A stretch of DNA of 64,000 nucleotides from an uncultured Christensenella sp. Lineage in GTDB: Bacteria; Bacillota; Clostridia; Christensenellales; CAG-917. Position numbers and translations under genes: made by a program. Shown one piece after another: positions 6,313 through 63,400 of this stretch (its first letter is position 1; every line of letters starts with the position of its first letter). The notes beneath the pieces are model-generated. The model ran no database searches and was not told where the DNA came from. It worked only from the letters and a program-made list of their open reading frames with translations. The stretch covers positions 284,557 to 348,556 of the forward strand of contig CAJTNO010000001.1 in the NCBI GenBank assembly GCA_910577815.1, read 5' to 3'.

Positions 6313-6319
6313 CGAGTAA

Positions 6320-6498
6320 ATGAATACCGCGCAGGCTGCACGGCGAAAGTATGTGCATTAAACGGGGAATACGGTGAAAATCCGTAGCTGTTCCGCAACG
6401 GTAACCTAAGGGAAGCCCGAATGCCAGACCTGCGAGAGGGGTTTCGTTTGGTTCGAGTTAAGCCGAGCGCGTCGGACACGTTTGGCGTGTCCTTTTTT
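6320..6498 (+). promoter_or_regulatory. Cobalamin (B12) riboswitch with intrinsic terminator
   Basis: Conserved core GGGGAAUACGGUGAAAAUCCGUAGCUGUUCCGCAACGGUAA and B12 box GGGAAGCCCGAAUGCCAGACCUGC. Expression platform hairpin GGACACG-tttgg-CGTGTCC plus T6 (6474-6498) lies just before the first gene. Confidence 0.85.
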
Positions 6499-6538
6499 AT
6501 TGAAAACGTAAATGCGGATAAATTTATAAGGAGTGCTT

Positions 6539-7096
6539 ATGAAATTAAAAAAAAGAATTGCGCTTTGCGCGCTTATGCTTGCGCTGGTAGCGGTGCTGAG
6601 CTTTACGCTTGTTGCGTGCAACGGCTCGCTTGAGCAACAGATACGCGATTTGCAGGATAAGGTGAACGGCTTCGAGCAGGATTTTGCGGAAAAGTCCATA
6701 ACCGTGTATATCGGGGAGAAGGAATTTGCGGTTACTACGCGCAAGTCCTTTCTGCACGACGTGCTTAAGGATTTGAAGGCAGGAGGGAAAATATCCGCGT
6801 ACGCTTACAGCGGCGGAGAGCTCAGCCCGTTTTTCACCCGGATAGACGACCTTGAGCAGGATACGGCAAATTATAAGTATTATACCGTCTGGCACACAGT
6901 GGATGAGTTTTCGCTGAAAAGCGTTTATGCGGGCTTTATGCCCGGGCGCGGCGAAAAGCTGACGGAGGGAGAGGGCGAGTACGCAACGGTATTTGTTGCT
7001 ACCTCTTATAAGCAGAGGACGATGTTTTATTCTAACGTAGGCGTGGGACTCCTGCCCGTTGTGGACGGAGCCGCATATGCCGTGCTTGTGGACTGA
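6539..7096 (+). CDS. Lipoprotein, DUF4430/transcobalamin-like (putative surface B12-binding protein)
   Basis: Lipobox LVAC after a signal peptide, with AAGGAG 6 nt upstream of ATG 6539. It lies directly under the B12 riboswitch. The family call comes from context and general sequence character only. Confidence 0.5.
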   Translation: MKLKKRIALCALMLALVAVLSFTLVACNGSLEQQIRDLQDKVNGFEQDFAEKSITVYIGEKEFAVTTRKSFLHDVLKDLKAGGKISAYAYSGGELSPFFTRIDDLEQDTANYKYYTVWHTVDEFSLKSVYAGFMPGRGEKLTEGEGEYATVFVATSYKQRTMFYSNVGVGLLPVVDGAAYAVLVD

Positions 7097-7183: not shown

Positions 7184-7798
7184 ATGCTTACGGCAAGAAA
7201 CAAATCCAATAAAACGGCGACCTTGTACGTGGTGCGAGTGGCGTTTATGGCGGCGACGCTAACGGCGTTTAAGCTGGCACTGTCCTTTGTGCCCAACGTG
7301 GAGGCGGTTACGCTGATTATATGCGTGTACGGCTCGGCTATGGGCGTTGCGTACGCTTTGCCCGCCGCGCTGATTTTCTGCACGGCGGAGCTTGCAATTT
7401 ACGGGTTTGGAAGCTGGGCGCTGTTGTACTACGTTTATTGGAGCTTGCTTGCCATAGTATCGGGATTGCTTTTGAAGGGCGGAAGAATTCCGCTTGCGGT
7501 TATTACAAGTATTGTCGGAAGCGCGTTGTTCGGAGTGCTGTCGGCTTGCTGCGATACGCTGTTTATCGTGACGAGCCTTGCGCCTTCAAGGCTCGGGGAT
7601 TACTGGATTGCCTATTATATCCGCGGTCTTTACTTCGACGTTGTGCATATCATTTCCAATGCGGTTATTATGTCCGTACTCTACGCGCCGTTGATTGCGG
7701 TGATTAAACGGGCGGCGCCGAGCGCGTACGGACGAACCCGCGCGCCGAGGCTTATGCGCCGTCTTGTGTTTTTGGAATACTCAAGAGAATGCGATTAA
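7184..7798 (+). CDS. ECF-transporter S-component-like membrane protein (putative cobalamin-specific, CbrT-like)
   Basis: 204 aa with about 6 TM helices, typical in size and hydrophobic pattern for ECF substrate-capture subunits. Second gene of the B12-riboswitch operon. Confidence 0.55.
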   Translation: MLTARNKSNKTATLYVVRVAFMAATLTAFKLALSFVPNVEAVTLIICVYGSAMGVAYALPAALIFCTAELAIYGFGSWALLYYVYWSLLAIVSGLLLKGGRIPLAVITSIVGSALFGVLSACCDTLFIVTSLAPSRLGDYWIAYYIRGLYFDVVHIISNAVIMSVLYAPLIAVIKRAAPSAYGRTRAPRLMRRLVFLEYSRECD

Positions 7799-15216: not shown

Positions 15217-15467
15217 TTGCGCCGACTGTCACACCTTGTGTGCCTGTCACAAATAATTTTGTGTGCCTATCACGCGTTATCTGAGTGAAGGCACACTGTG
15301 GTACGCACACTTGCGAGAATGCGAAATTTATAGTCATTTAAAGTAAACTCGCAAGATGTGCTGTGAGCGCAATCGTTTAAGGTGCAAAAGAGGCAAGTGA
15401 ATTGCCACTTTTGCGGAATGAAATTATTTGTAGGTGTACATCGCTCGTTACGAAGTTTAGAACACGA

Positions 15468-15760
15468 CGCGCAGGGCGCGGAGCTATTGAGCGCCGAAGT
15501 GCGATGATAGTACAAGTGAGCGCGGACTTCGTCCGTTTAAACACCAAGCAAAAGGTTATGCGGAGTGTAGCAGGAGTTTATAACGTCGGAGAAAGTGAAC
15601 AGCAAATAATCTTTTGCGCGGTAGTACAGATAAAATCGAACTATCATAATAACAATGATTACATCGTAAGCGTTGTTATGTGATATGTGCCGATTTTAGC
15701 TGTTGAGTGGTGGGAGCGGCGAGACCGGAAAGAGGGGGCTATTCTATTTATGTACACGAC
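15468..15760 (+). repeat. Modular intergenic element, copy A (candidate structured RNA or BOX-like repeat)
   Basis: 5' block 15471-15521 and 3' block 15705-15757 are near-identical to 61070-61121 and 61242-61304. The interior is unrelated in sequence but contains hairpins at equivalent positions. Confidence 0.6.
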
Positions 15761-15792
15761 ATACAGCATTAAAAAGTGACTTGAGCGTACTT

Positions 15793-16077
15793 TTATTGTA
15801 ATTTGCACAGCCCAAGTTCTAACGCCAGTTTAAAGCCAGATTTGAAACCATAATAATATATGTTATCTTCAACCTCACTGTAATACTCTCCGATAGCTTC
15901 GTCTAATTTATTATAGAGGTCTATTATTTGAGGTTGATTTTCAATAGCTTCAAACAATTTATGCTCCAAATCAACAATCACATTAAGTGCATCTGTAATC
16001 TTTTGTGTATTTTTTATTATTTTATAGTCGTCTCTTTGAGCATAAAGCAGCATTGTTATTATATTTAGTTCATTCAT
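15793..16077 (-). CDS. Hypothetical small protein (94 aa) in an AT-rich island, divergent from an XRE regulator
   Basis: ORF with GAGGT upstream of the ATG and AT-rich codon usage. It shares the palindrome-containing intergenic region with the 16171 gene. Confidence 0.5.
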   Translation of the reverse strand: MNELNIITMLLYAQRDDYKIIKNTQKITDALNVIVDLEHKLFEAIENQPQIIDLYNKLDEAIGEYYSEVEDNIYYYGFKSGFKLALELGLCKLQ

Positions 16078-16114
16078 TACAGTAACCTCAAAAAATGATT
16101 GTATCTACATTCTA

Positions 16115-16149
16115 ATACCCATTTTGGGTATTGTCAACCCAAAATGGGT
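16115..16149. promoter_or_regulatory. Two adjacent palindromic operator-like sites in a divergent promoter region
   Basis: ATACCCATTTTGGGTAT (16115-16131) and ACCCAAAATGGGT (16137-16149). TATAAT at 16159-16164 lies only 6 nt before ATG 16171. Confidence 0.55.
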
Positions 16150-16170
16150 ATTTGCGCGTATAATTTTACT

Positions 16171-16389
16171 ATGACTGATTTTAATTTTGGAAAAAACCTT
16201 AAAGAAATAAGAAAAGCAAACCATTTAACTCAAGCACAAGTGGCGGAGTTGCTTCATTGTAGCATAAATAAATATGCGAGCTGGGAACAAGGTCGTACTG
16301 AACCTGATATAGAAAGCTTGTGGGAATTATGCAAAATTTTTAATGTGAACTATAACGATTTGCTTATTCCTATAAATTCCCAATATTAA
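16171..16389 (+). CDS. XRE-family helix-turn-helix regulator (72 aa)
   Basis: LKEIRKANHLTQAQVAELLHCSINKYASWEQGRTEPD is the Cro/C1-type HTH pattern. Start set at the internal ATG just after the -10 box. Confidence 0.75.
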   Translation: MTDFNFGKNLKEIRKANHLTQAQVAELLHCSINKYASWEQGRTEPDIESLWELCKIFNVNYNDLLIPINSQY

Positions 16390-16445
16390 AATTTATTTAG
16401 TTTTCATAACGCCTTCATATAACACTCTTGTGGTAAATAATTTTT

Positions 16446-16661
16446 ATGAGAAAAATACTTTTTGCAGAAAGATTAAAAGAATTACGTAAAGAAGAAAATT
16501 TAACGCAGTTGGAACTTGCAAAATCCACAGGGTTAAGTCAAAGCGCAATAACTGCTTGGGAAGTTGGCACAAACTCTCCGACAGCAACGGCAATCGTACT
16601 TCTTGCGGAATATTTTGACGTTACAACAGATTACATACTTGGCGTAAGTAATATCAGATGA
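16446..16661 (+). CDS. XRE-family helix-turn-helix regulator (71 aa)
   Basis: LKELRKEENLTQLELAKSTGLSQSAITAWEVGTNSP HTH pattern. Confidence 0.75.
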   Translation: MRKILFAERLKELRKEENLTQLELAKSTGLSQSAITAWEVGTNSPTATAIVLLAEYFDVTTDYILGVSNIR

Positions 16662-16797
16662 TTTTAATTTGCATTATTAAGTTATTAAATGTTTTAAACC
16701 ATATAAAAAATAAAGCCGATTCAATTTACTTATTTGTATATTTGATGGTATTATAAAACATATCACTTTTAGATATAATTTTTTTAAAGGTGAAAAT

Positions 16798-17025
16798 ATG
16801 GATTTAAAAATAGAAGTAGGTAAAAGATTGGCGTACTGTAGAAAGCAAGCGGGTTATACGCAGAAACAGGCAGGCGAAGCGGTGAATATGACGCAGCCTA
16901 ATTATGCAAGATATGAGAGAGGAGTTTATGAATTAAACTACTATCAAATAAAAACCCTTTGCGCTTTATTTGATGTATCCTCTGATTATTTATTTGGTCT
17001 TTCAAAAGACATCGGCAGAAACTAA
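16798..17025 (+). CDS. XRE-family helix-turn-helix regulator (75 aa)
   Basis: LAYCRKQAGYTQKQAGEAVNMTQPNYARYERGVYE HTH pattern. The stop is 3 nt before the ispE start. Confidence 0.75.
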   Translation: MDLKIEVGKRLAYCRKQAGYTQKQAGEAVNMTQPNYARYERGVYELNYYQIKTLCALFDVSSDYLFGLSKDIGRN

Positions 17026-17028
17026 ACA

Positions 17029-21213: not shown

Positions 21214-22329
21214 ATGAAAAATCATACTATGAGCGTACTGTTTGCATCCGACGCCGAGAGCCATCTCAACGACCTGACTATTCACCGTACCACCGCGTCG
21301 CTCCCATTCGGCGGTCGTTACCGTCTTATCGACTTTGCGCTGTCCAATCTGGTCAGCTCCAATATCACTACTATAGGTATCATAACGCGCAATAACTATA
21401 ACTCGCTTATGGACCATATCCGTATGGGGCGCGACTGGGACCTCAACAGAAAAAACAGCGGTATAACCGTTTTCCCGCCCTTCGTTTTCAACAGCGCGCA
21501 CGAGGTCTATAAGGGTAAAATTGAAGCTCTTTACACGCTGCGCGGCTTTATGATGAGCAATAACGAGGAGTACGTTGTCATTGCAAATACCAATATCGCC
21601 TGCAATATCGATTTCGAGGAGGTGGAAAAATTCCACATCGAAAAGGGCGCGGATATTACCGTCCTCACCCATTACACCGACGATACCAATCCGCGTAAGA
21701 TTATTATTTCCTCGGACAAAAACAACCGTATAACCGATATGCGCTATCCCGTTGCAAGCGATACCGGCAAGCAGAGATGTAACCTCAATATCTACTATAT
21801 CAAAAAGGATTTGCTTATTTCGCTTGTGGATAACGCTTATGCTCACGGCGCGTACGACTTTGAAAAGGATATCCTGCAAAAGAAGCTGGACGAGCTCTAT
21901 ATTATGAACTACGAGGTGAAGGATTACGTAGCCGTTATCGACCGTATTCCCACCTATTTCAAGCGCAGTATGGAGCTGCTCGACCCCGCCGTGCGCGAGG
22001 AGCTGTTCTATAAGCATTCTACCATTCTCACAAAGGTTAAGGACAGCGTTCCCGTCAAGTACAAGGAGGGCGCAGACGTCAAAAACTCAATTATCGCCGA
22101 CGGCTGCGTTATTGACGGCACCGTGGAAAACTCCATTCTGTTCCGTAGCGTCAAGGTCGGCAAGGGCGCAGTTATCAGAAATTCAATCATAATGGAGGAT
22201 TCCATCATTATGGACGGCGCGTCGCTTGATTACACAATTACCGATAAGGACGTTATAATTCAGTCCGGACGTACTCTCAGCGGCTATGAGAGCTATCCTA
22301 TGGTGGTGGTAAAGGGCAAAGTCATATAA
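21214..22329 (+). CDS. glgD: Glucose-1-phosphate adenylyltransferase regulatory subunit GlgD
   Basis: Paralogue of GlgC lacking the GGxGxR motif (RTTASLPFGGRYRLIDFALSN). Position right after glgC is typical for Firmicutes. Confidence 0.88.
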   Translation: MKNHTMSVLFASDAESHLNDLTIHRTTASLPFGGRYRLIDFALSNLVSSNITTIGIITRNNYNSLMDHIRMGRDWDLNRKNSGITVFPPFVFNSAHEVYKGKIEALYTLRGFMMSNNEEYVVIANTNIACNIDFEEVEKFHIEKGADITVLTHYTDDTNPRKIIISSDKNNRITDMRYPVASDTGKQRCNLNIYYIKKDLLISLVDNAYAHGAYDFEKDILQKKLDELYIMNYEVKDYVAVIDRIPTYFKRSMELLDPAVREELFYKHSTILTKVKDSVPVKYKEGADVKNSIIADGCVIDGTVENSILFRSVKVGKGAVIRNSIIMEDSIIMDGASLDYTITDKDVIIQSGRTLSGYESYPMVVVKGKVI

Positions 22330-22334
22330 AATCA

Positions 22335-22690
22335 GCGCAAATCACAGCGCAACACCCGCAAAGCGGTTATTGCGCGAGTGAAAGCTTGATTTTATATCGG
22401 CTACCGCGTAAAAGTTTGTTGTACTGTACACTTTAACCGACGTTGTAAACACTTGCAACGCTCCGTACAAACTTTTACTTGGTTGATGCAAGCGGAATAA
22501 ATATATAAAACGGCGCAAATCACGGCGCAACACCCGCAAAGCGGTTATTGCGCGAGTGAAAGCTTGATTTTATATCGGCTACCGCGTAAAAGTTTGTTGT
22601 ACTGTACACTTTAACCGACGTTGTAAACACCTGCAACGCTCCGTACAAACATTGTATAAACGGAAAAATTATATAAGGAGAAATCAATAT
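22335..22690 (+). repeat. Tandem duplication, period 178 nt, two copies
   Basis: 138-nt cores at 22335-22472 and 22513-22650 differ at only two positions (A22346/G22524, T22453/C22631). The 40-nt tails are only loosely similar. Confidence 0.95.
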
Positions 22691-39476: not shown

Positions 39477-39679
39477 GATATGTTTTAATGCGGTAACTGC
39501 GCGAGTTCAAAATCCGTCGGATTATCGGCGGATTTTGTCGTTTTATTTATTTGAGCGGCGTTCGGGGAGGTGATGTGCGTCTTAATTCAGACCGTAAGTA
39601 AGTTTAAATAAATATTTATAGAGGAAATGAACAAAATATCGTGTATGCTATTAGCAATACTCAAAAGAAGGTGAATTTT

Positions 39680-40582
39680 ATGAAAGTACAAGATTGGGCT
39701 AACGAGTGGCTTGCCGTTTACATCAAAAATAGGGTGAAAAACAGAACCTATCAGAAGTATCAGCAGGTCCTTACTTCACACGTTTTGCCGCAAATCGGCG
39801 ATAAGGAGCTGAATAACGTCAGAGCGCACGATATTCAGCAGCTTATATACGTCGAACTGCTGGAAAACAAGAAACTCGCCGGAAATACCATAAACATCGC
39901 GCTTGCGGTGTGTAAGGGCTTATTCTCAAGCGCGGAGGACGCCGAGATTATCCCCAAAAATCCCTGCGCAAGAATTAAAAGGGTGTCCGTCGAGGAAAAA
40001 AATATCGAGGTCTTTACCGTCCGCGAACAGCATAGGCTTGAATGCGGCGTAAGAGAGGACGGCAGACTCAGAATGTTCGGAATTTTAATCAGTCTTTATA
40101 CCGGACTGCGTCTGGGCGAGCTGCTTGCTCTTACCTGGGACGACGTCGATTTTCAGCGAGGTACGCTTACCGTCAATAAAACCAAGGTGTCGCAATCGGA
40201 CGCGGAAACAGGCTACACCTCGCCTAAGACAAAGGCGTCTACAAGAACTATTCCCATTCCTCCAAACGTCATAGCTTTGCTTAAGCTTATGAAAAGGCAC
40301 AGCACCTGCAAATGGGTTGTGGAGTACAACGGAAAACCCATTCACGAGAGGGGCTATCAGGCGCTGTTCGAGAGGCTTCAAAGACGTCTGAATATGCGTC
40401 CGCGCGGATTTCACGCGCTCAGACATACGTTTGCTACACGCGCTATGGAGTGCGGCACCGACTGTAAAACCCTAAGCGAGCTGATGGGGCACTCCAATGC
40501 TATGATTACAATCAACCGCTATACGCACAGTCTTATGGAAACAAAACGCAAGGCAATAAATAAAATCGCGCGCCGCGACTAA
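39680..40582 (+). CDS. Tyrosine recombinase / phage-type integrase
   Basis: N-terminal SAM-like core-binding domain. Catalytic residues in GLRLGELLALTWDDVD, HALRHTFATRA, LMGHSNAMITINRYTH. No partner mobile genes are seen. Confidence 0.85.
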   Translation: MKVQDWANEWLAVYIKNRVKNRTYQKYQQVLTSHVLPQIGDKELNNVRAHDIQQLIYVELLENKKLAGNTINIALAVCKGLFSSAEDAEIIPKNPCARIKRVSVEEKNIEVFTVREQHRLECGVREDGRLRMFGILISLYTGLRLGELLALTWDDVDFQRGTLTVNKTKVSQSDAETGYTSPKTKASTRTIPIPPNVIALLKLMKRHSTCKWVVEYNGKPIHERGYQALFERLQRRLNMRPRGFHALRHTFATRAMECGTDCKTLSELMGHSNAMITINRYTHSLMETKRKAINKIARRD

Positions 40583-45656: not shown

Positions 45657-45731
45657 TGGTACTCCCGGCGGGAATCGAACCCACAACGGCCCCTTAGGAG
45701 GGGGCTGTTATATCCATTTAACTACGGAAGC
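45657..45731 (-). tRNA. tRNA-Arg (anticodon CCU)
   Basis: The reverse strand folds as a cloverleaf: acceptor GCTTCCG/CGGGAGT, D-arm GTTA-AATGGATA-TAAC, anticodon arm GCCCC-CTCCTAA-GGGGC, T-arm GTGGG-TTCGATT-CCCGC, encoded ACCA end. TTGTCA-N17-TATAAT lies upstream. Confidence 0.85.
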
Positions 45732-48479: not shown

Positions 48480-50885
48480 TTATGCGCGTACGCTTTCGAT
48501 ATAGCCCTTTATTTTGCTTGCGTTGTCGTACACGTCATATCCGTCGCCGTTGGGAACGAGGAGGGTGGGAGCCTTTTTAACTCCGAACGATACGGTTGTG
48601 TCCTTGTTGTCCTCGGCGTCGATGACGGTGTAGACGATTCCCGCTTTTTCAAGCATACTCTTTGCCATTTTGCAGTTGGGGCAGGTCTTGGTTGTAAAGA
48701 TGAGTATGTCGTTTTTGTTTATTGAGGTTACATTCTCTTTTTTTGGCGTCGCGGCTACCATAGGCGCGGTGTCCGTGCAGACGAATTCGCTTATCTCCTT
48801 GCCGTGGTACTGCGAGGTTGCGATGTCGTAAACCTTGCGCTCCTTGAACTCGGCTATCTTGCCGTCGTTCCAGTTCTGAACAGGACGGTAGTAGCCTGTT
48901 ATACGGCTGTATACCTCTGTCTTGCGTCCGCAGATGGGGCAGGTGTACTGCTCGCCCTCGAGATAGCCGTGGTCGGCGCAGATGGAGTATGTGGGGGACA
49001 GTGTGTAATACGGAAGCTTGTAGTTTTCGGCTATCTTTCTTACGAGGTTTGCCGCAGCCTGCCAGCTGTCCAGCTTCTGTCCGAGGAAGGCGTGGAATAC
49101 CGTGCCCGAGGTGTACAGAGTTTGCAGGTCGTCCTGTATGTCGAGAGCGGAGAAGATATCCGCGGTGTATCCGACGGGCAGGTGCGAGCTGTTGGTGTAG
49201 TAGGGAATGTTGTCCATACTCTTTGCGCAGATGATGTTGGGATATTTAGCTCTGTCGTGCTTTGCAAGTCTGTAGGAGGTGGATTCCGCGGGAGTTGCCT
49301 CGAGGTTGTACAAATCGCCGTACTCCTCCTGATAGTCGGAAAGCTTGTTGCGCATAAAGTTGAGTACCTTTTGCGTGAACTCCTGAGCTTCCTTGTGGGT
49401 TAAATCCTTGCCAACCCAACGCGCGTTGAGGCAAGCCTCGTTCATACCTACAAGTCCGATTGTCGAGAAGTGGTTGCTGAATGAGCCAAGATATCTCTTT
49501 GTGTAGGGATAAAGTCCTTCGTCGAGCAGCTTTGTTATGACGTTGCGCTTGATTTTGAGCGAGCGCGCCGCGATGTTCATAAGTCTTTCAAGCTCCTTGA
49601 AGAACTCCTGCTCCGTTGTCGCTACATATGCTATGCGCGGTATGTTTATCGTTACGACGCCGACCGAGCCGGTGGATTCGCCGCTTCCGAAGAAGCCGCC
49701 CGACTTTTTGCGAAGCTCGCGCAGGTCGAGGCGCAGACGGCAGCACATACTGCGTACGTCGCTCGGCTCCATATCGCTGTTGATGTAGTTGGAGAAATAC
49801 GGCGTGCCGTATTTTGACGTCATTGTGAACAGCAGACGGTTGTTTTCGGTATCAGACCAATCGAAATCTCTGGTAATTGAGTAGGTGGGAATAGGATACT
49901 GGAAGCCTCTGCCGTTGGCGTCGCCCTCTATCATAATCTCGATAAACGCCTTGTTTACCATTCGCATTTCCTCGACGCAGTCCTTGTACTTGAAGTCCAT
50001 ATCCTTGCCGCCTACGATTGCGGGAAGCTCGGCGAGGTCGTTAGGCACTACCCAGTCGAGTGTGATGTTGGTAAACGGAGCCTGCGTACCCCAACGCGAG
50101 GGAGTGTTTACGCCGTATATAAAGGATTGTATGCATTGCTTTACTTCCTTATATGTAAGGTTGTCTACCTTAACAAAGGGAGCAAGATAGGTGTCGAAGG
50201 AGGAAAACGCCTGCGCGCCAGCCCATTCGTTTTGCATTATTCCGAGGAAATTGACCATCTGATTGCAGAGAGTGGAGAGGTGAGACGCGGGAGAGGACGT
50301 TATTTTGCCGGGAATTCCGCCGAGTCCTTCTCTTATCAGCTGCTTGAGCGACCAGCCCGCGCAGTAGCCCGTGAGCATACTGAGGTCGTGCAGGTGTATC
50401 TGCGCCTCGCGGTGCGCCTTTGCAATCTCCTCGTCGTATATCTCGCTCAGCCAGTAGTTGGCGGTGACTGCGCCCGAGTTGGACAGGATAAGTCCGCCTA
50501 CCGAATAGGATACGGTGGAGTTCTCCTTTACGCGCCAGTCGTTGACCTTAAGATAGTTGTCTACGGTGTTTTTGTAGTCCAGAGTGGTCGCGCTTATGTC
50601 ACGGAGCTTCTGGTGCTGCTTTCTATATAGAATGTAAGCCTTTGCAACCTCGACGTAGCTTGTCTGTATAAGGACTACTTCTACTGCGTCCTGTACGTCC
50701 TCAACCGTTACGACGTCGTCCCTGACCTTGTCGTTGAAGGCGGCTGTGACGCGCAGCGCGAGCATATCGAGTATGTCGTCGCTGTAGCTTTTGCCTACTG
50801 CGGCAAACGCCTTTTCAATAGCTATTTTGATTTTGTTCAGATTGAACGGGACAATGTTGCCGTCCCTTTTTTTCACGTTTAGCAT
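48480..50885 (-). CDS. nrdD: Anaerobic ribonucleoside-triphosphate reductase (class III) with a fused C-terminal glutaredoxin/NrdH-like domain
   Basis: N-terminal ATP-cone (VKKRDGNIVPFNLNKI), NrdD core, zinc site CPICGRKTE, glycyl-radical motif SRITGYYRPV. About 110 extra residues follow, including ILIFTTKTCPNCKMAK...APTLLV. Confidence 0.9.
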   Translation of the reverse strand: MLNVKKRDGNIVPFNLNKIKIAIEKAFAAVGKSYSDDILDMLALRVTAAFNDKVRDDVVTVEDVQDAVEVVLIQTSYVEVAKAYILYRKQHQKLRDISATTLDYKNTVDNYLKVNDWRVKENSTVSYSVGGLILSNSGAVTANYWLSEIYDEEIAKAHREAQIHLHDLSMLTGYCAGWSLKQLIREGLGGIPGKITSSPASHLSTLCNQMVNFLGIMQNEWAGAQAFSSFDTYLAPFVKVDNLTYKEVKQCIQSFIYGVNTPSRWGTQAPFTNITLDWVVPNDLAELPAIVGGKDMDFKYKDCVEEMRMVNKAFIEIMIEGDANGRGFQYPIPTYSITRDFDWSDTENNRLLFTMTSKYGTPYFSNYINSDMEPSDVRSMCCRLRLDLRELRKKSGGFFGSGESTGSVGVVTINIPRIAYVATTEQEFFKELERLMNIAARSLKIKRNVITKLLDEGLYPYTKRYLGSFSNHFSTIGLVGMNEACLNARWVGKDLTHKEAQEFTQKVLNFMRNKLSDYQEEYGDLYNLEATPAESTSYRLAKHDRAKYPNIICAKSMDNIPYYTNSSHLPVGYTADIFSALDIQDDLQTLYTSGTVFHAFLGQKLDSWQAAANLVRKIAENYKLPYYTLSPTYSICADHGYLEGEQYTCPICGRKTEVYSRITGYYRPVQNWNDGKIAEFKERKVYDIATSQYHGKEISEFVCTDTAPMVAATPKKENVTSINKNDILIFTTKTCPNCKMAKSMLEKAGIVYTVIDAEDNKDTTVSFGVKKAPTLLVPNGDGYDVYDNASKIKGYIESVRA

Positions 50886-50953
50886 ACTGTGAACCCCTTT
50901 AATGAAAATTTGCTTTCTCATTATAGCAAGTGGGCAGAATAAGTCAAGGGAAA

Positions 50954-51002
50954 TCACAAAATAAAGTGTGAAACATTTTTGAGAAACACCATATATAGTG
51001 GT
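50954..51002. promoter_or_regulatory. Two NrdR boxes upstream of nrdD
   Basis: TCACAAAATAAAGTGTGA (50954-50971) and ACACCATATATAGTGGT (50986-51002). Both resemble the ACACnATATATnGTGT consensus, with centres about 31-32 bp apart. Confidence 0.75.
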
Positions 51003-59758: not shown

Positions 59759-61042
59759 ATGTTAGATTTAATAAGAATAAGAAACAATCCGCAGGCAGTG
59801 GCAGACGCTCTGGCAAAAAAGGGCTTTAAGGCTGATTTCGACGAGGTTATCGCGTGGGACGATATGCGCAAGGCGCTTATAACCGACGTGGAGCAGTTGA
59901 AGGCGCAGAAAAATAAGGTGTCGGCGCAGATACCCGTGCTTAAAAAGGCAGGTCAGTCCGTCGAGCCTATTTTTGAGGAGATGAGAAAGCTCGGCGACGA
60001 GATTGCCGCGAGCGACGCTAAGATTGCGGAGCTGATTGCAAATATAAACGACACTCTTGCCTGTATGCCCAATATCCCCGACGACGACCTGCTCGCGGGA
60101 GAAAAGGAAAACAATCAGGTAGTTAAGACGGGCGGCAAAAAGCCGGAGTTTGACTTTACTCCCAAAAACCACGTTGACCTTTGCACCGACCTCGGGCTTA
60201 TCGACTACGAGCGCGGAGTAAAGCTGAGCGGCAACGGCTTCTGGATTTACAGAGGCGTCGGCGCAAGACTGGAATGGGCGTTGCTCAATTATTTTGTGGA
60301 CGAGCATTTACAGGACGGCTACGAATTTATTCTGCCGCCCTATCAGCTTGGATATAACTGCGGCTTCGGAGCGGGGCAGTTTCCAAAATTCAGCGACGAG
60401 GTTTACTGGCTGGATTGCGACGAGGATAAAAAACGCAACCGCTTTATGCTTCCCACCGCCGAAACCGCGCTTGTAAATATGTATGCGGGCGAAATTATAG
60501 ACGAAAGCAGGCTTCCTATGAAATTCTTTGCGTACTCGCCCTGCTTCAGAAAGGAGGCGGGCTCTGCACGCACGGAGGAGCGCGGAATGATTAGAGGACA
60601 TCAGTTCAACAAGATTGAGATGGTGCAGTACGCGCATCCCGACCGCAGTATGGAGGCTTTTGAGGAGCTTGTAGAAAAGGCGGCGAGACTTGTCGAAAAG
60701 CTTGGACTTCACTATCGCGTGAGCAAGCTTGCGGCGGGCGACTGCTCGGCTTCTATGGCGAGAACCTACGACGTGGAGCTGTGGATTCCGTCTATGGGAA
60801 TTTATAAGGAGTGTTCGTCCGTAAGCAACGCAAACGATTATCAGGCGCGCAGAAATAATACTCGTTTCCGTGATTCCAAGACGGGCAAGCCGCAGTTTGT
60901 GCATACTCTTAACGGCAGCGGTCTTGCAACGTCGCGACTTATCCCCGCAATCGTCGAGCAGTATCAGAATGCGGACGGAAGCGTTACCGTGCCCGAAGTT
61001 TTACGTAAGTATTTAAATATAGATTGTATATCTAATAAATAA
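59759..61042 (+). CDS. serS: Serine--tRNA ligase
   Basis: N-terminal coiled-coil arm and class II motifs (FRKEAGSAR, RGHQFNKIEM, TLNGSGLATSR). Confidence 0.95.
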   Translation: MLDLIRIRNNPQAVADALAKKGFKADFDEVIAWDDMRKALITDVEQLKAQKNKVSAQIPVLKKAGQSVEPIFEEMRKLGDEIAASDAKIAELIANINDTLACMPNIPDDDLLAGEKENNQVVKTGGKKPEFDFTPKNHVDLCTDLGLIDYERGVKLSGNGFWIYRGVGARLEWALLNYFVDEHLQDGYEFILPPYQLGYNCGFGAGQFPKFSDEVYWLDCDEDKKRNRFMLPTAETALVNMYAGEIIDESRLPMKFFAYSPCFRKEAGSARTEERGMIRGHQFNKIEMVQYAHPDRSMEAFEELVEKAARLVEKLGLHYRVSKLAAGDCSASMARTYDVELWIPSMGIYKECSSVSNANDYQARRNNTRFRDSKTGKPQFVHTLNGSGLATSRLIPAIVEQYQNADGSVTVPEVLRKYLNIDCISNK

Positions 61043-61063
61043 AAGCTTAGTTGAAAGTAACAA

Positions 61064-61306
61064 GCGCGTGCAGGGCGCGCGCCAAATTGAGTGCCGAAGT
61101 GCGATGATAGTACAAGTGAGCGGACAAATGCAGTTTGACTGTCCGCGAACGAGTGGCATAATAAAGCGACGGTGGTTGTTCACGAGTGCCGTCTGTCTCC
61201 CCCGCGAGCGATGTGCAGTTAAATAGTGAAATCACTATTTCGAGTGGTGGGAGAAATACCGGCGAGACCGGAAAGAGGGGGCTATTCTATTTATAGTTCA
61301 CGACGG
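61064..61306 (+). repeat. Modular intergenic element, copy B (candidate structured RNA or BOX-like repeat)
   Basis: Shares the 5' block (61070-61121) and 3' block (61242-61304) with copy A at 15468-15760. It fills almost the whole serS-nrdG spacer. Confidence 0.6.
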
Positions 61307-61321
61307 GGTATTATTTAACAT

Positions 61322-62017
61322 ATGAAAATCAACGGTTACGAAAAGTTTTCAATGGTCGATTTCGAGGGCAAAATCGCTTGCACCGTTTTTACGGGCGGCT
61401 GCAACCTGCGTTGTCCCTTTTGTCATAACGGCTCGCTTGTGATAGGCGACGTAAAGGCAAATCAGATTGACGACGGCGAGGTTATGGAATATCTCGAGAA
61501 ACGCCGCGGGCTTGTGGACGCGGTCAGCGTTACGGGCGGCGAAGCTACGCTTCAGCCCGACCTTGCGGATTTTCTCAGGCGCGTGCGCGCGCTTGGATAT
61601 ATCACCAAGCTTGACACAAACGGATTACGTCCCGACGTGCTTAAAAATCTGCTTGACGAGGGACTTGTCGATTATGTGGCTATGGATATTAAAAACAGCC
61701 CCGAAAAGTACGCGTTTACTACGGGGCTTAAGTGCGTTGACCTCGATAAAATCAACGAGAGTATGCGCATTATAAAGGAAAGCGGAGTTAATCACGAATA
61801 CCGCACGACGATAATCAAGGAGTTTCACACCGCAGAGGATATGGAAAGAATTGCGCAGTGGGTTAGCGGCGCAAACGCATATTATATGCAGAAATACAGC
61901 GACAGCGAGGGCTGTATATCCCACGGCTATCACGAAATCGAAAAAGCGCAGGCGGAGGAATTTGCCAAGCTATTTGAAAATAAAGTAGTAAAGGTTGGCT
62001 TACGCGGATACAACTAA
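61322..62017 (+). CDS. nrdG: Anaerobic ribonucleotide reductase activating protein (radical SAM)
   Basis: FSMVDFEGKIACTVFTGGCNLRCPFCHN and GGEATLQPDL, typical of the NrdG2 class. It lies about 10 kb from nrdD. Confidence 0.8.
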   Translation: MKINGYEKFSMVDFEGKIACTVFTGGCNLRCPFCHNGSLVIGDVKANQIDDGEVMEYLEKRRGLVDAVSVTGGEATLQPDLADFLRRVRALGYITKLDTNGLRPDVLKNLLDEGLVDYVAMDIKNSPEKYAFTTGLKCVDLDKINESMRIIKESGVNHEYRTTIIKEFHTAEDMERIAQWVSGANAYYMQKYSDSEGCISHGYHEIEKAQAEEFAKLFENKVVKVGLRGYN

Positions 62018-62053
62018 CGATAAAATTCGGCATAAAGCGCAGAACAGTATTTG

Positions 62054-62257
62054 CTAAACGTCGTTTAAAGCATCGCCGAGAAGTTCGTTTATAGAAACAT
62101 TATATAAATTTGCAAGCATAGCTAACTTATCGGCGCGTATAGTTAGAGGTTTTTGTTCATACCGCCTATATGTGTTGTCGCTGATATGTAATATCTCCGC
62201 TACCTGCTTACAGCTATATCCGCGTCTTTTTCTTAATTTTTTTAATTTCGACCACAT
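62054..62257 (-). CDS. XRE-family helix-turn-helix regulator (67 aa)
   Basis: LRKRRGYSCKQVAEILHISDNTYRRYEQ HTH pattern, in an AT-rich stretch. Confidence 0.7.
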   Translation of the reverse strand: MWSKLKKLRKRRGYSCKQVAEILHISDNTYRRYEQKPLTIRADKLAMLANLYNVSINELLGDALNDV

Positions 62258-62618
62258 TTTTTTCTCCTGCTTAAGTGAATTTGTATATGAGTAAACTTAT
62301 ACCTGAAGCTTTTTATTTTAGTGTATATATCTCAAGTTGTGATAAGGTTTTTTATAATCATAGCATTAAAAAACCGTGCTGTGCGCAAATATGAGTATTC
62401 TCATTTTATAAATCAAAATTGTGTATTAAGTTATAAGTAAAATTATCAAATAAGCAAAAAGCGGGGATTTACTCCTCGCTTTTTGCACCTTGTTAGTTTG
62501 CGCTAACAGCAAAACTCATTGCTGATTATATATTGATTATTACTAAGTTAGTGCAATGATTTTGCGTACACGTAGCACGTTGGCGTGCGCAGTGTGTTAC
62601 GTTTGGCGCAAATATAAA

Positions 62619-63212
62619 TTAGCATACTCCGTCCTGCAGCTTAAGCATTACAAAGCCTTGCTTTGCTTTGCACAGCGGGCAGGTGTCCCAAGCCTCCTTG
62701 CCTTCCGCCTCGTAGCCGCAGCCCGCACATTTCCATTTTACCGCCTTCGGCTTTTTGTAGAGCGTGCCCGTGGACATCTGATTGTGCAAATCCTCAAACA
62801 GCATTTTGTGACAGTTCTCTACGTCGCCTATCATCTTAAACAGATTTGCAATTTCCTCAAAGCCTTCCTCGCGCGCGGTCTTTTCAAATTCCTTGTAGAT
62901 TTTTATTTCCGCCGCTTCGTCCTCCGCCGCAAGCTTAAGGTTTTCTATAAGATTCCATTTCTCCTTAAACGGATATCCCGTTGCAATATCGATATTGTCT
63001 ATCGTCTTGTTGCTCGCCTGCTGTATTGCCGTGTAGAGCATACGCGCGTGATTGAATTCGTTAAATACGATTTTGTCTATCACCTCCGAAAGGGCGTTGT
63101 AGCCCTCGTTGCGCGCGCCGTACTCTATAAACTTGTAGCGCGTGTATGCTTGGGTTTCGCCTGCGTACGCTTTTGCAAGGTTGAGCAGAGTTTTACTGTC
63201 GATAAGTTTCAT
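62619..63212 (-). CDS. rbr: Rubrerythrin
   Basis: Ferritin-like diiron domain (EFNHARMLY, EDEAAE..) plus a C-terminal rubredoxin-like CAGCG...CPLC. Confidence 0.9.
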   Translation of the reverse strand: MKLIDSKTLLNLAKAYAGETQAYTRYKFIEYGARNEGYNALSEVIDKIVFNEFNHARMLYTAIQQASNKTIDNIDIATGYPFKEKWNLIENLKLAAEDEAAEIKIYKEFEKTAREEGFEEIANLFKMIGDVENCHKMLFEDLHNQMSTGTLYKKPKAVKWKCAGCGYEAEGKEAWDTCPLCKAKQGFVMLKLQDGVC

Positions 63213-63400
63213 AATTGTTCTCCTTAAGGTTTGATTTACTGATTATTGCCTAAAATGCCGCGATTATACCAAAGCGGCTTTTTATAGCGTTGTCGGCTTT
63301 GAATATATTCATTTAAATTTCCTTTTGCGCTTTTGCTTGAAAGTAGTTATATATGGTGATATTATTTATAGGACATAACGTTTCAAAAGGAGAAAATTTT

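Follow-up and report, generated by a model that had tools for sequence, protein, structure and literature searches.

What occupies the spacer between serS and nrdG, and does it serve either gene? In the window, the 64,000-nt stretch of DNA analysed here, the serS stop codon is at 61040-61042 and the nrdG ATG at 61322, the nrdG product matching NCBIfam NrdG2 with 217.6 bits (cut-off 131). The original prediction placed here, at 61064-61306, the second copy (copy B) of a modular intergenic element with conserved ends and a free interior, a potential serS 3′-UTR or nrdG 5′ leader. All features described for copy B were found where they had been placed. The element is real, but the unit is wider than proposed: strains lacking it miss exactly 275 bp, which set its limits at 61043-61317 (+ strand, outer letters AAGCTTAGTTG...GGGGTATTATTTA). 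The element takes up the spacer and has the same orientation as both genes. Homology with two other copies (L022 and L019) began at (A)AGCTT, immediately 3′ of the stop codon of the upstream gene. A 30-nt 5′ block (at 15493 and 61093) and a 35-nt 3′ block (at 15717 and 61260) each occurred exactly twice in the window, and such matches in none of 100 shuffles. The two sites belong to copy A and copy B (Table 1); no third copy of the element was found within the 64 kb.

Copy B was recognized as a canonical member of a family of non-coding elements of ~260-380 nt, and the family HMM matched it at 61052-61305 (E = 1.5e-73). The copies came from four species: species 1 is that of the window, species 2 is a sister species represented by the MAG MGBC124771 ("uncultured Christensenella sp."), and species 3 and 4 were reached through the HMM. 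In 185,579 species-representative genomes, the 3′ 19-mer of the element (GAGACCGGAAAGAGGGGGC, which contains the invariant AAAGAGGGGGCU) had nine sites, all in the single MAG MGBC124771, and the 5′ 24-mer had no match. The 19-mer had no match in viral contigs either. A scan of JGI metagenomes added two copies, D (L022), upstream of the acyl-carrier-protein gene acpP, and C (L023), upstream of a PALP-family gene. Searching the contigs of SerS homologues with the family HMM gave more divergent copies in two more species. In species 3 (SerS 90% identical) there was one copy between amylase and chromate-transporter genes and one or two tandem copies upstream of nrdG, all on the opposite strand to the flanking genes. 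In species 4 (SerS 90% identical) a single copy preceded the leuS promoter. Within 20 kb of serS, no copy was present in four further relatives (SerS 94%, 91%, 88% and 86% identical). With copies in four species and none near serS in four others, the family is, as far as these genomes tell, patchy and confined to a narrow clade of uncultured Clostridia. The dispersed family suspected in the original prediction thus comprises at least 20 copies in four related species, at a low copy number of about 4-9 per genome.

The genes adjoining the copies were functionally unrelated (nrdG, acpP, PALP, carB, ogt, rpsO/pnp, the nusA operon, leuS, ABC-2 and others). An element beside nrdG was found in three species. 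For most copies in species 1 and 2 the upstream gene was co-oriented. For several copies a same-strand ATG followed after 60-100 nt (nrdG, acpP, PALP, carB, ogt, pnp), and four or five faced a convergent gene. The species-3 copies were antisense to both neighbours, nrdG included. Because the neighbours are unrelated and the species-3 copies antisense, a dedicated leader or 3′-UTR role, specific for serS or nrdG, lost its support. The leuS upstream spacers of the different species (L034, L035, L036) were too divergent in alignment to place insertion boundaries. In species 3, same-orientation copies flanked a ~4-kb segment between serS and nrdG, in a composite-transposon-like arrangement (L032 13169-18129); the bracketed segment carried two chromate-transporter genes and an MFS gene.

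Table 1 Parts of the two element copies in the window
Feature	Position	Strand	Remark
Copy B, 5′ leader, starts AAGCTTAG	61043-61063	+	Left end common to copy D and the sister-species copies
Copy B, helix P1, GCGCGUGC-AGG-GCGCGCGC	61064-61082	+	Covarying stem
Copy B, closing helix, 5′ strand UGAGUGCC	61088-61095	+	Partner GGGGGCU 61277-61283; RNAalifold
Copy B, helix P3, GUACAAGUGA-GCGGACA...UGUCCGC-GAACGAGUG	61111-61155	+	Tandem G-A internal loop; best-supported helix
Copy B, unpaired conserved block GAGUGGCAUAAUAA	61151-61164	+	Near-invariant in species 1 and 2
Copy B, helix P4, GACGGUG...UGCCGUC	61168-61193	+	Present in the MFE fold of copy B
Copy B, helix P5, UCUCCCCCGC with GUGGUGGGAGA	61196-61254 (61196-205 with 61244-54)	+	Long C-run/G-run helix; P6 inside
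Copy B, variable hairpin P6, AAATAGTG-aaat-CACTATTT	61221-61240	+	Enclosed by P5
Copy B, hairpin P7, CCGG-CGAGA-CCGG	61259-61271	+	Exchanged as a whole hairpin between species
Copy B, invariant AAAGAGGGGGCU, closing helix 3′ strand	61272-61283	+	Unchanged across species 1 and 2
Copy B, 3′ tail, AUUCUAUUUAUAGUUCACGACG then 12 nt	61284-61317	+	Homology with tails elsewhere in the family (UAUUUCAUUUAAAGUGCACGACG...)
Copy A, 5′ part (leader, P1, 5′ block)	15440-15522	+	Family HMM positions 2-76
Copy A, interior, F2 unit replacing the central domain	15523-15699	+	Related to the F2 repeats
Copy A, 3′ part, GAGUGGUGGGAG...GGGGGCUAUUCUAUUUAU...	15700-15764	+	Family HMM positions 193-262

Folded alone, copy B was modestly better than its shuffles (z = -2.3). 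From the alignments, RNAalifold predicted about seven helices (P1, P3, P4, P5, P6, P7 and the closing helix). In an alignment of 12 sequences from four species, 97.5% of the cells were paired, compared with 33-53% when the 3′ partners were slid by 1-3 columns. Both sides were altered in eight pairs, amounting to 30 cells, and the observed covariation score was reached by none of 500 shuffles; a 10-sequence set behaved similarly. P1 and P3 held most of the double changes. The P1 stem occurred as GCGCUCGC/GCGAGCGC, GCGUUCGC/GCGAACGC, GCCUCGC/GCGAGGC and ACCGC/GCGGU, and 6 of the 12 pairs in P3 were changed on both sides across the four species. The inner stem of P3 is the GCGGACA-N13-TGTCCGC at 61120-61146, and its tandem G-A motif is kink-turn-like. 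The outer stem of P4 covaried by eye (CGG/CCG, UCG/CGA, GGU/ACC), and P7 became CCC-GAA-GGG in species 3 and CCGG-CGUGU-CCGG in species 4. P5 had nine pairs, with 98-99% of the cells paired and an A-U to G-U exchange. The closing helix was predicted in all three alignments, with one-sided changes only (C-G to U-G, G-C to G-U). Because the pairs of P5 and of the closing helix were either unchanged or altered on one side, both helices fit the data and are unproven.

The helices were kept by compensatory changes on one strand, as in structured RNAs generally. Frequent G-U pairs in the helices indicate the + strand as the folded one, because they would be A-C mismatches on the opposite strand. This suggests an RNA, and less likely a single-stranded DNA. 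No conserved ORF was seen by eye on either strand, and the indels were not multiples of three. In the alignments the element was conserved over the whole body, not at the ends alone; the appearance of conserved ends with a free interior had arisen from comparing the canonical copy B with a chimeric copy A (see below). The AAATAC that had been described as an insertion in copy B is present, but it is the normal state of the family, found in most canonical copies and absent from one species-3 copy and from copies A and C (L023). At P4, an optional ~50-nt two-hairpin module was carried by some of the copies in species 2 and 3, and subsets of copies in two species had an optional ~40-nt module, whose position differed between copies. 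The latter, a double hairpin (ACGGGGTCCCCG...CCCCTGTTTGATGGGG; L016 1240-1290, L017 1660-1700, L032 17960-18010), looks like a tiny mobile palindrome of its own.

Contigs encoding an identical SerS protein were numerous in mouse-gut metagenomes and MAGs. Copy B was present at full length, with 99.3-100% identity, in six of the contigs compared (L001, L003, L004, L006, L007 and L024). Two strains (L002 and L008), with identical SerS, had instead serS-TAA-ACAT-ATG-nrdG. Empty and filled sites differed by exactly the 275 bp of the unit, with a junction ambiguity of 2 nt (AA). The flanking genes were ~99% identical among filled and empty strains, and nrdG was intact in the empty ones. Because these two strains live without it, copy B is dispensable at serS-nrdG. 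Both empty strains carried the same SNP haplotype, which was nested within those of the filled strains, and the surroundings of the junction were free of foreign tracts. Copy B and the sister-species copy on L019 shared the left junction (AAGCTTAGTTGAAAG and AAGCTTATTGAAAAG, right after the serS stop) and the tail variant, from which the serS-nrdG copy probably predates the split of the two species, the empty allele probably being a secondary clean loss. This is the only event of excision or deletion seen, and an illegitimate deletion could account for it.

Among the filled strains the element had 0-1 SNP per 275 nt, compared with 1.4-2.7% at third codon positions of leuS, serS and nrdG. The sole strain-level SNP in the element was at 61232, in the P6 loop, and the nearest flanking SNPs were at 61000 and 61387. 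This low diversity fits purifying selection, with the strains not being independent samples. Downstream of nrdG, the region 62018-63400 was strain-variable (compared with L001-L008), with small XRE-type HTH genes present or absent; one strain had a sigma-70-family gene and unknown genes in their place.

Copy A has a different build, and its interior does not align with that of copy B. This interior was 71% identical over 83 nt (E = 1e-5) to units of another repeat family, F2, found next to the elements of species 3, and it also resembled a tandem F2 pair in the window. This pair (22329-22653, minus strand) has two 147-nt units at a spacing of 178 nt, with 97% identity between them, and had no Rfam match at the gathering threshold. 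F2 adjoined elements in species 2 and 3 and is a second structured repeat family. By the homologies of its parts, copy A is a chimera of an element 5′ part, an F2 unit and an element 3′ part, and the modular look of A versus B came from this. The lysS-ispE spacer that holds copy A (15417-17028, compared with L010 4668-5449) is a strain-variable island. In the window, copy A is accompanied there by three XRE-type HTH genes and, on the minus strand, by a DUF6809-like gene. In other strains it had one HTH gene (minus), one DUF6809 gene (plus) and no copy A. Another disrupted copy was found on L035.

Further signs of recombination came from comparing the copies. Paralogues of one genome resembled each other more than copies at orthologous sites did, with 88% identity between B and D, which share a genome, and 74% between B and L019; the type-1 paralogues of MGBC124771 were 89-96% identical, and the flanking coding DNA of the window species and MGBC124771 was 83% identical. 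The nrdG-proximal locus of species 3 had three strain forms, namely a single copy, a tandem pair and a copy extended by the 50-nt module. The first of these is a recombinant, with the 5′ part of one pair member and the 3′ part of the other. On L005 (4285-4610), a B-type body ran up to GGGGGCTAT, where the copy C tail took over, followed by the PALP gene. Copy C thus explains this hybrid contig, which would be either an ectopic recombination product or an assembly chimera at the repeat.

In MGBC124771, the element was preceded and followed by the same ~25-45 nt sequence (...GTGCACGACGAACACTCATTGCG|AAGCTTAGAAC... and ...ACGAACACTCATTGCG|AAGCTTAGAAC...). The same junction bounded F2 and a palindromic repeat, P, and partial leaders were stacked at L019. 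Copies B and D were without the upstream half of the junction and started exactly at AAGCTT, which defines the left end. The P repeat (GGCTCCCCTTAGTAAGGGGAGC, a hairpin, and GGTGAGGGGATTGTCAACTAA) and a 33-nt repeat (CGTCATTGCGAGGCTATGCCGAAGCAATCCAGA) each had many copies in the MGBC124771 contigs L015-L020. Together with the element and F2 they formed mosaics in long intergenic regions (e.g., L016 1565-1640, 3417-3625 and 4344-4370).

We then asked which known class of element or RNA might accommodate the family. With cmscan against Rfam 15 at the gathering threshold, the sole matches of the window were a tRNA (45660-45731) and a cobalamin riboswitch (6316-6447), and scans of copies B, A, L017 and L032 at E <= 10 gave scattered, inconsistent hits of <= 25 bits. 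Distant blastn searches against plasmid and phage collections gave no match. Neither result named in the original prediction as refuting it was obtained, because no known family matched and the whole element, not its terminal blocks alone, recurred with a structure supported by covariation. The cobalamin riboswitch (+ strand, 50.8 bits, E = 1e-9) was upstream of two ORFs (6533-7096 and 7184-7798), both without a Pfam family. A T-box or riboswitch identity was rejected for the element, with no matches and no consistent gene context. The same was the case for a group II intron, as the GUGCG of the 5′ block was absent in type-1 copies and no domain-V-like hairpin was seen by eye. An apparent internal promoter of copy B, of the extended -10 type (TTGACT-16-TGgCATAAT), lost the -10 T in L021, species 3 and species 4, the variants being CAUAAC, CAUAAA and CAUAGA. 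It overlaps the conserved unpaired block GAGUGGCAUAAUAA. Because the -10 degenerates in other species, we take this block for a probable RNA motif and not for a promoter.

Being small, non-coding, multi-copy and polymorphic in insertion, the element has the general traits of a MITE. Two marks of a classical MITE were nevertheless missing. The ends (AAGCTTAG... and ...CACGACG(AACACTCATTGCG)) had no inverted complementarity, and there was no fixed-length target-site duplication, the filled and empty B sites showing the 2-nt AA ambiguity alone. Direct repeats around other copies were element-derived or locus-variable, and the inverted ~60-nt sequences beside some MGBC copies were the separate P repeat, which also occurred solitary. 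For an IS200/IS605-derived PATE with a TnpB omega-RNA, the left end had no constant 4-5 nt target on its 5′ side; left flanks tended to finish with TAA or TAG, and the start of homology differed among copies. Similar subterminal hairpins were also missing, P1 and P7 being unrelated in sequence. No autonomous relative with tnpA, tnpB or iscB was found among the window ORFs scanned, no transposase among the larger window ORFs scanned with Pfam, and no transposase, recombinase or reverse transcriptase beside the copies in the ~0.5 Mb examined. A generic tyrosine recombinase of 313 aa (39641-40582, +), far below the Xer and IntI cut-offs, was encoded 20 kb away from copy B and ~5 kb from the tRNA gene, which is on the minus strand; no connection between this recombinase and the repeats emerged.

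Several explanations can be set against these results. We favour, with confidence slightly above even, that copy B is a member of a lineage-restricted, selfish or semi-domesticated family of structured non-coding repeats, moved by putative trans-acting machinery and reshuffled by recombination, which at this locus acts as a dispensable intercistronic spacer. The machinery would multiply and relocate the elements within genomes, probably recognizing the shared ends (left AAGCTTAG..., right ...CACGACG/...CAUUGCG), and homologous recombination between copies would reshuffle the family. Here the element would be co-transcribed with serS and nrdG as a structured spacer, replacing the tight serS-nrdG translational coupling seen in strains without it. 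Different loci in different species and both orientations speak for mobility. Against it stand the missing terminal inverted repeats, the inconsistent target-site duplications and the low copy number; persistence beside nrdG in three species and low within-species diversity would also fit a useful cellular RNA. The latter leads to the main rival, a family of trans-acting or protein-binding structured ncRNA genes, with paralogues arising by duplication and gene conversion rather than transposition. The complex fold with its covariation in four species, the kink-turn-like tandem G-A, the invariant unpaired blocks, extra hairpins tolerated only at loop positions, the low strain diversity and the retention of the nrdG-adjacent copy in three species would all suit such a family. 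We consider it possible but rather unlikely, as no conserved promoter or terminator was found, some strains lacked copy B and others copy A, chimeric or disrupted copies persist (copy A, L035), relatives at 94% and 91% SerS identity had no copy within 20 kb of serS, and the ends are common to other repeat families.

A cis-acting RNA, that is, a serS 3′-UTR or an nrdG 5′ leader controlling nrdG expression, would account for an element that fills the spacer in the orientation of both genes, for the several copies shortly upstream of a same-strand ATG and for the repeated neighbourhood of nrdG. It appears quite improbable, with downstream genes sharing no function, four or five copies facing a convergent gene, antisense copies beside nrdG and other genes in species 3, the leuS promoter between element and gene in species 4, and an intact, 99% identical nrdG in strains without the element. 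To the narrower idea of an NrdR operator for nrdG at the 3′ end we give practically no credence. NrdR boxes are 16-bp palindromes (acaCwAtATaTwGtgt) that usually come as tandem pairs with a distance of about 31-32 bp. The AT-rich, partly palindromic look of CTATTTATAG was the sole support for the NrdR-box-like end noted originally; the tail had no match to ACACWATATWTWGTGT at <= 3 mismatches, and it is common to copies without a nearby nrd gene. Two boxes with 2 mismatches each and the typical 32-bp spacing were found instead directly upstream of nrdD (50954-50969 and 50986-51001; nrdD 48480-50957, minus strand), 10 kb from nrdG, and by match and spacing these are the real NrdR operator of the region. 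A weak NrdR-box-like palindrome between lysS and copy A (ACAAATAATTTTGTGT, 15249-15264, 3 mismatches) is probably due to chance. An orphan guide-type RNA (IscB/TnpB omega-RNA, IS110 bridge RNA or retroelement template), mobilized by a protein encoded elsewhere, would fit the size and structural complexity, the stand-alone dispersed copies, the precise loss of copy B, and the RE-LE-like junctions (...CATTGCG|AAGCTTAG...) that recur up- and downstream of copies. This seems very unlikely: Rfam, including the HEARO (IscB omega-RNA) motif, gave no match even at E <= 10, in 15 copies no copy-specific 9-mer linked interior to flank above shuffle expectation, the scaffold ends adjoined conserved and not hypervariable sequence, and no such protein was found in the window.

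Among known systems, the small transcribed, structure-conserving repeats of Firmicutes of the bcr1 type appear to be the closest kind. The bcr1 and other interspersed repeats of the Bacillus cereus group (Group A) are small, mobile and transcribed, with a fold kept by compensatory changes (PMC3184786). Like them, the element is short, intergenic, non-coding, strain-variable and without a transposase of its own, with a structure maintained by compensatory changes. It differs in size and fold (~270 nt and ~seven helices, versus ~155 bp and a two-hairpin cruciform with 5-bp direct repeats in bcr1; PMC3184786), in having no consistent target duplication, in its low copy number and in the lack of Rfam similarity. 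With the modular BOX elements of streptococci and with RUP, Correia/nemis and ERIC repeats (PMC3184786) it shares a mosaic build, intergenic location, possible co-transcription and presence/absence polymorphism. Unlike BOX and MITE-like repeats, it has no terminal inverted repeats, its ends forming a direct repeat, and its whole body is conserved, with covariation across species. The HEARO/IscB omega-RNA and IS605-orfB (TnpB) motifs are reportedly structured RNAs of mobile elements that also occur stand-alone. The element resembles them in its ornate, RNA-like fold of 200-300 nt and in being multi-copy, probably mobile and without an ORF at many loci, and differs by the absence of an Rfam match, of an adjacent IscB or TnpB and of a variable guide-like segment at either end.

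The recurring junction that strings together element, F2 and P bodies in MGBC124771, with partial leaders at L019, also recalls integron cassettes. Compared with integron attC sites, the junction of ~25-45 bp lacks the imperfect-palindrome architecture, and no IntI was nearby. We regard it as unlikely that the element, F2 and P, which share this junction, travel as non-coding cargo in a mobility system, cassette-type or RNA-mediated, that would be new for uncultured Christensenellales-like Clostridia. Such cargo, of unit length and with defined ends, would be excised precisely and re-integrated at the ~25-45 bp junction (...CATTGCG|AAGCTTAG...), with the fold as the RNA or single-strand form recognized by the machinery.

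Read as the repeat family that we favour, the element adds to a poorly studied gut lineage a structured RNA-like family that is absent from Rfam, is found in four species, and has ~seven helices with covariation. Its position upstream of nrdG cautions against reading a repeat as an nrd regulator, the true NrdR operator being at nrdD. The element may be one more lineage-specific intergenic repeat, and even then it can break assemblies and mislead annotation, as in the L005 hybrid and with the copy at the end of contig L013. If instead the families sharing the junction are mobile cassettes, or if the RNA has a protein partner, they would be a new system for study.
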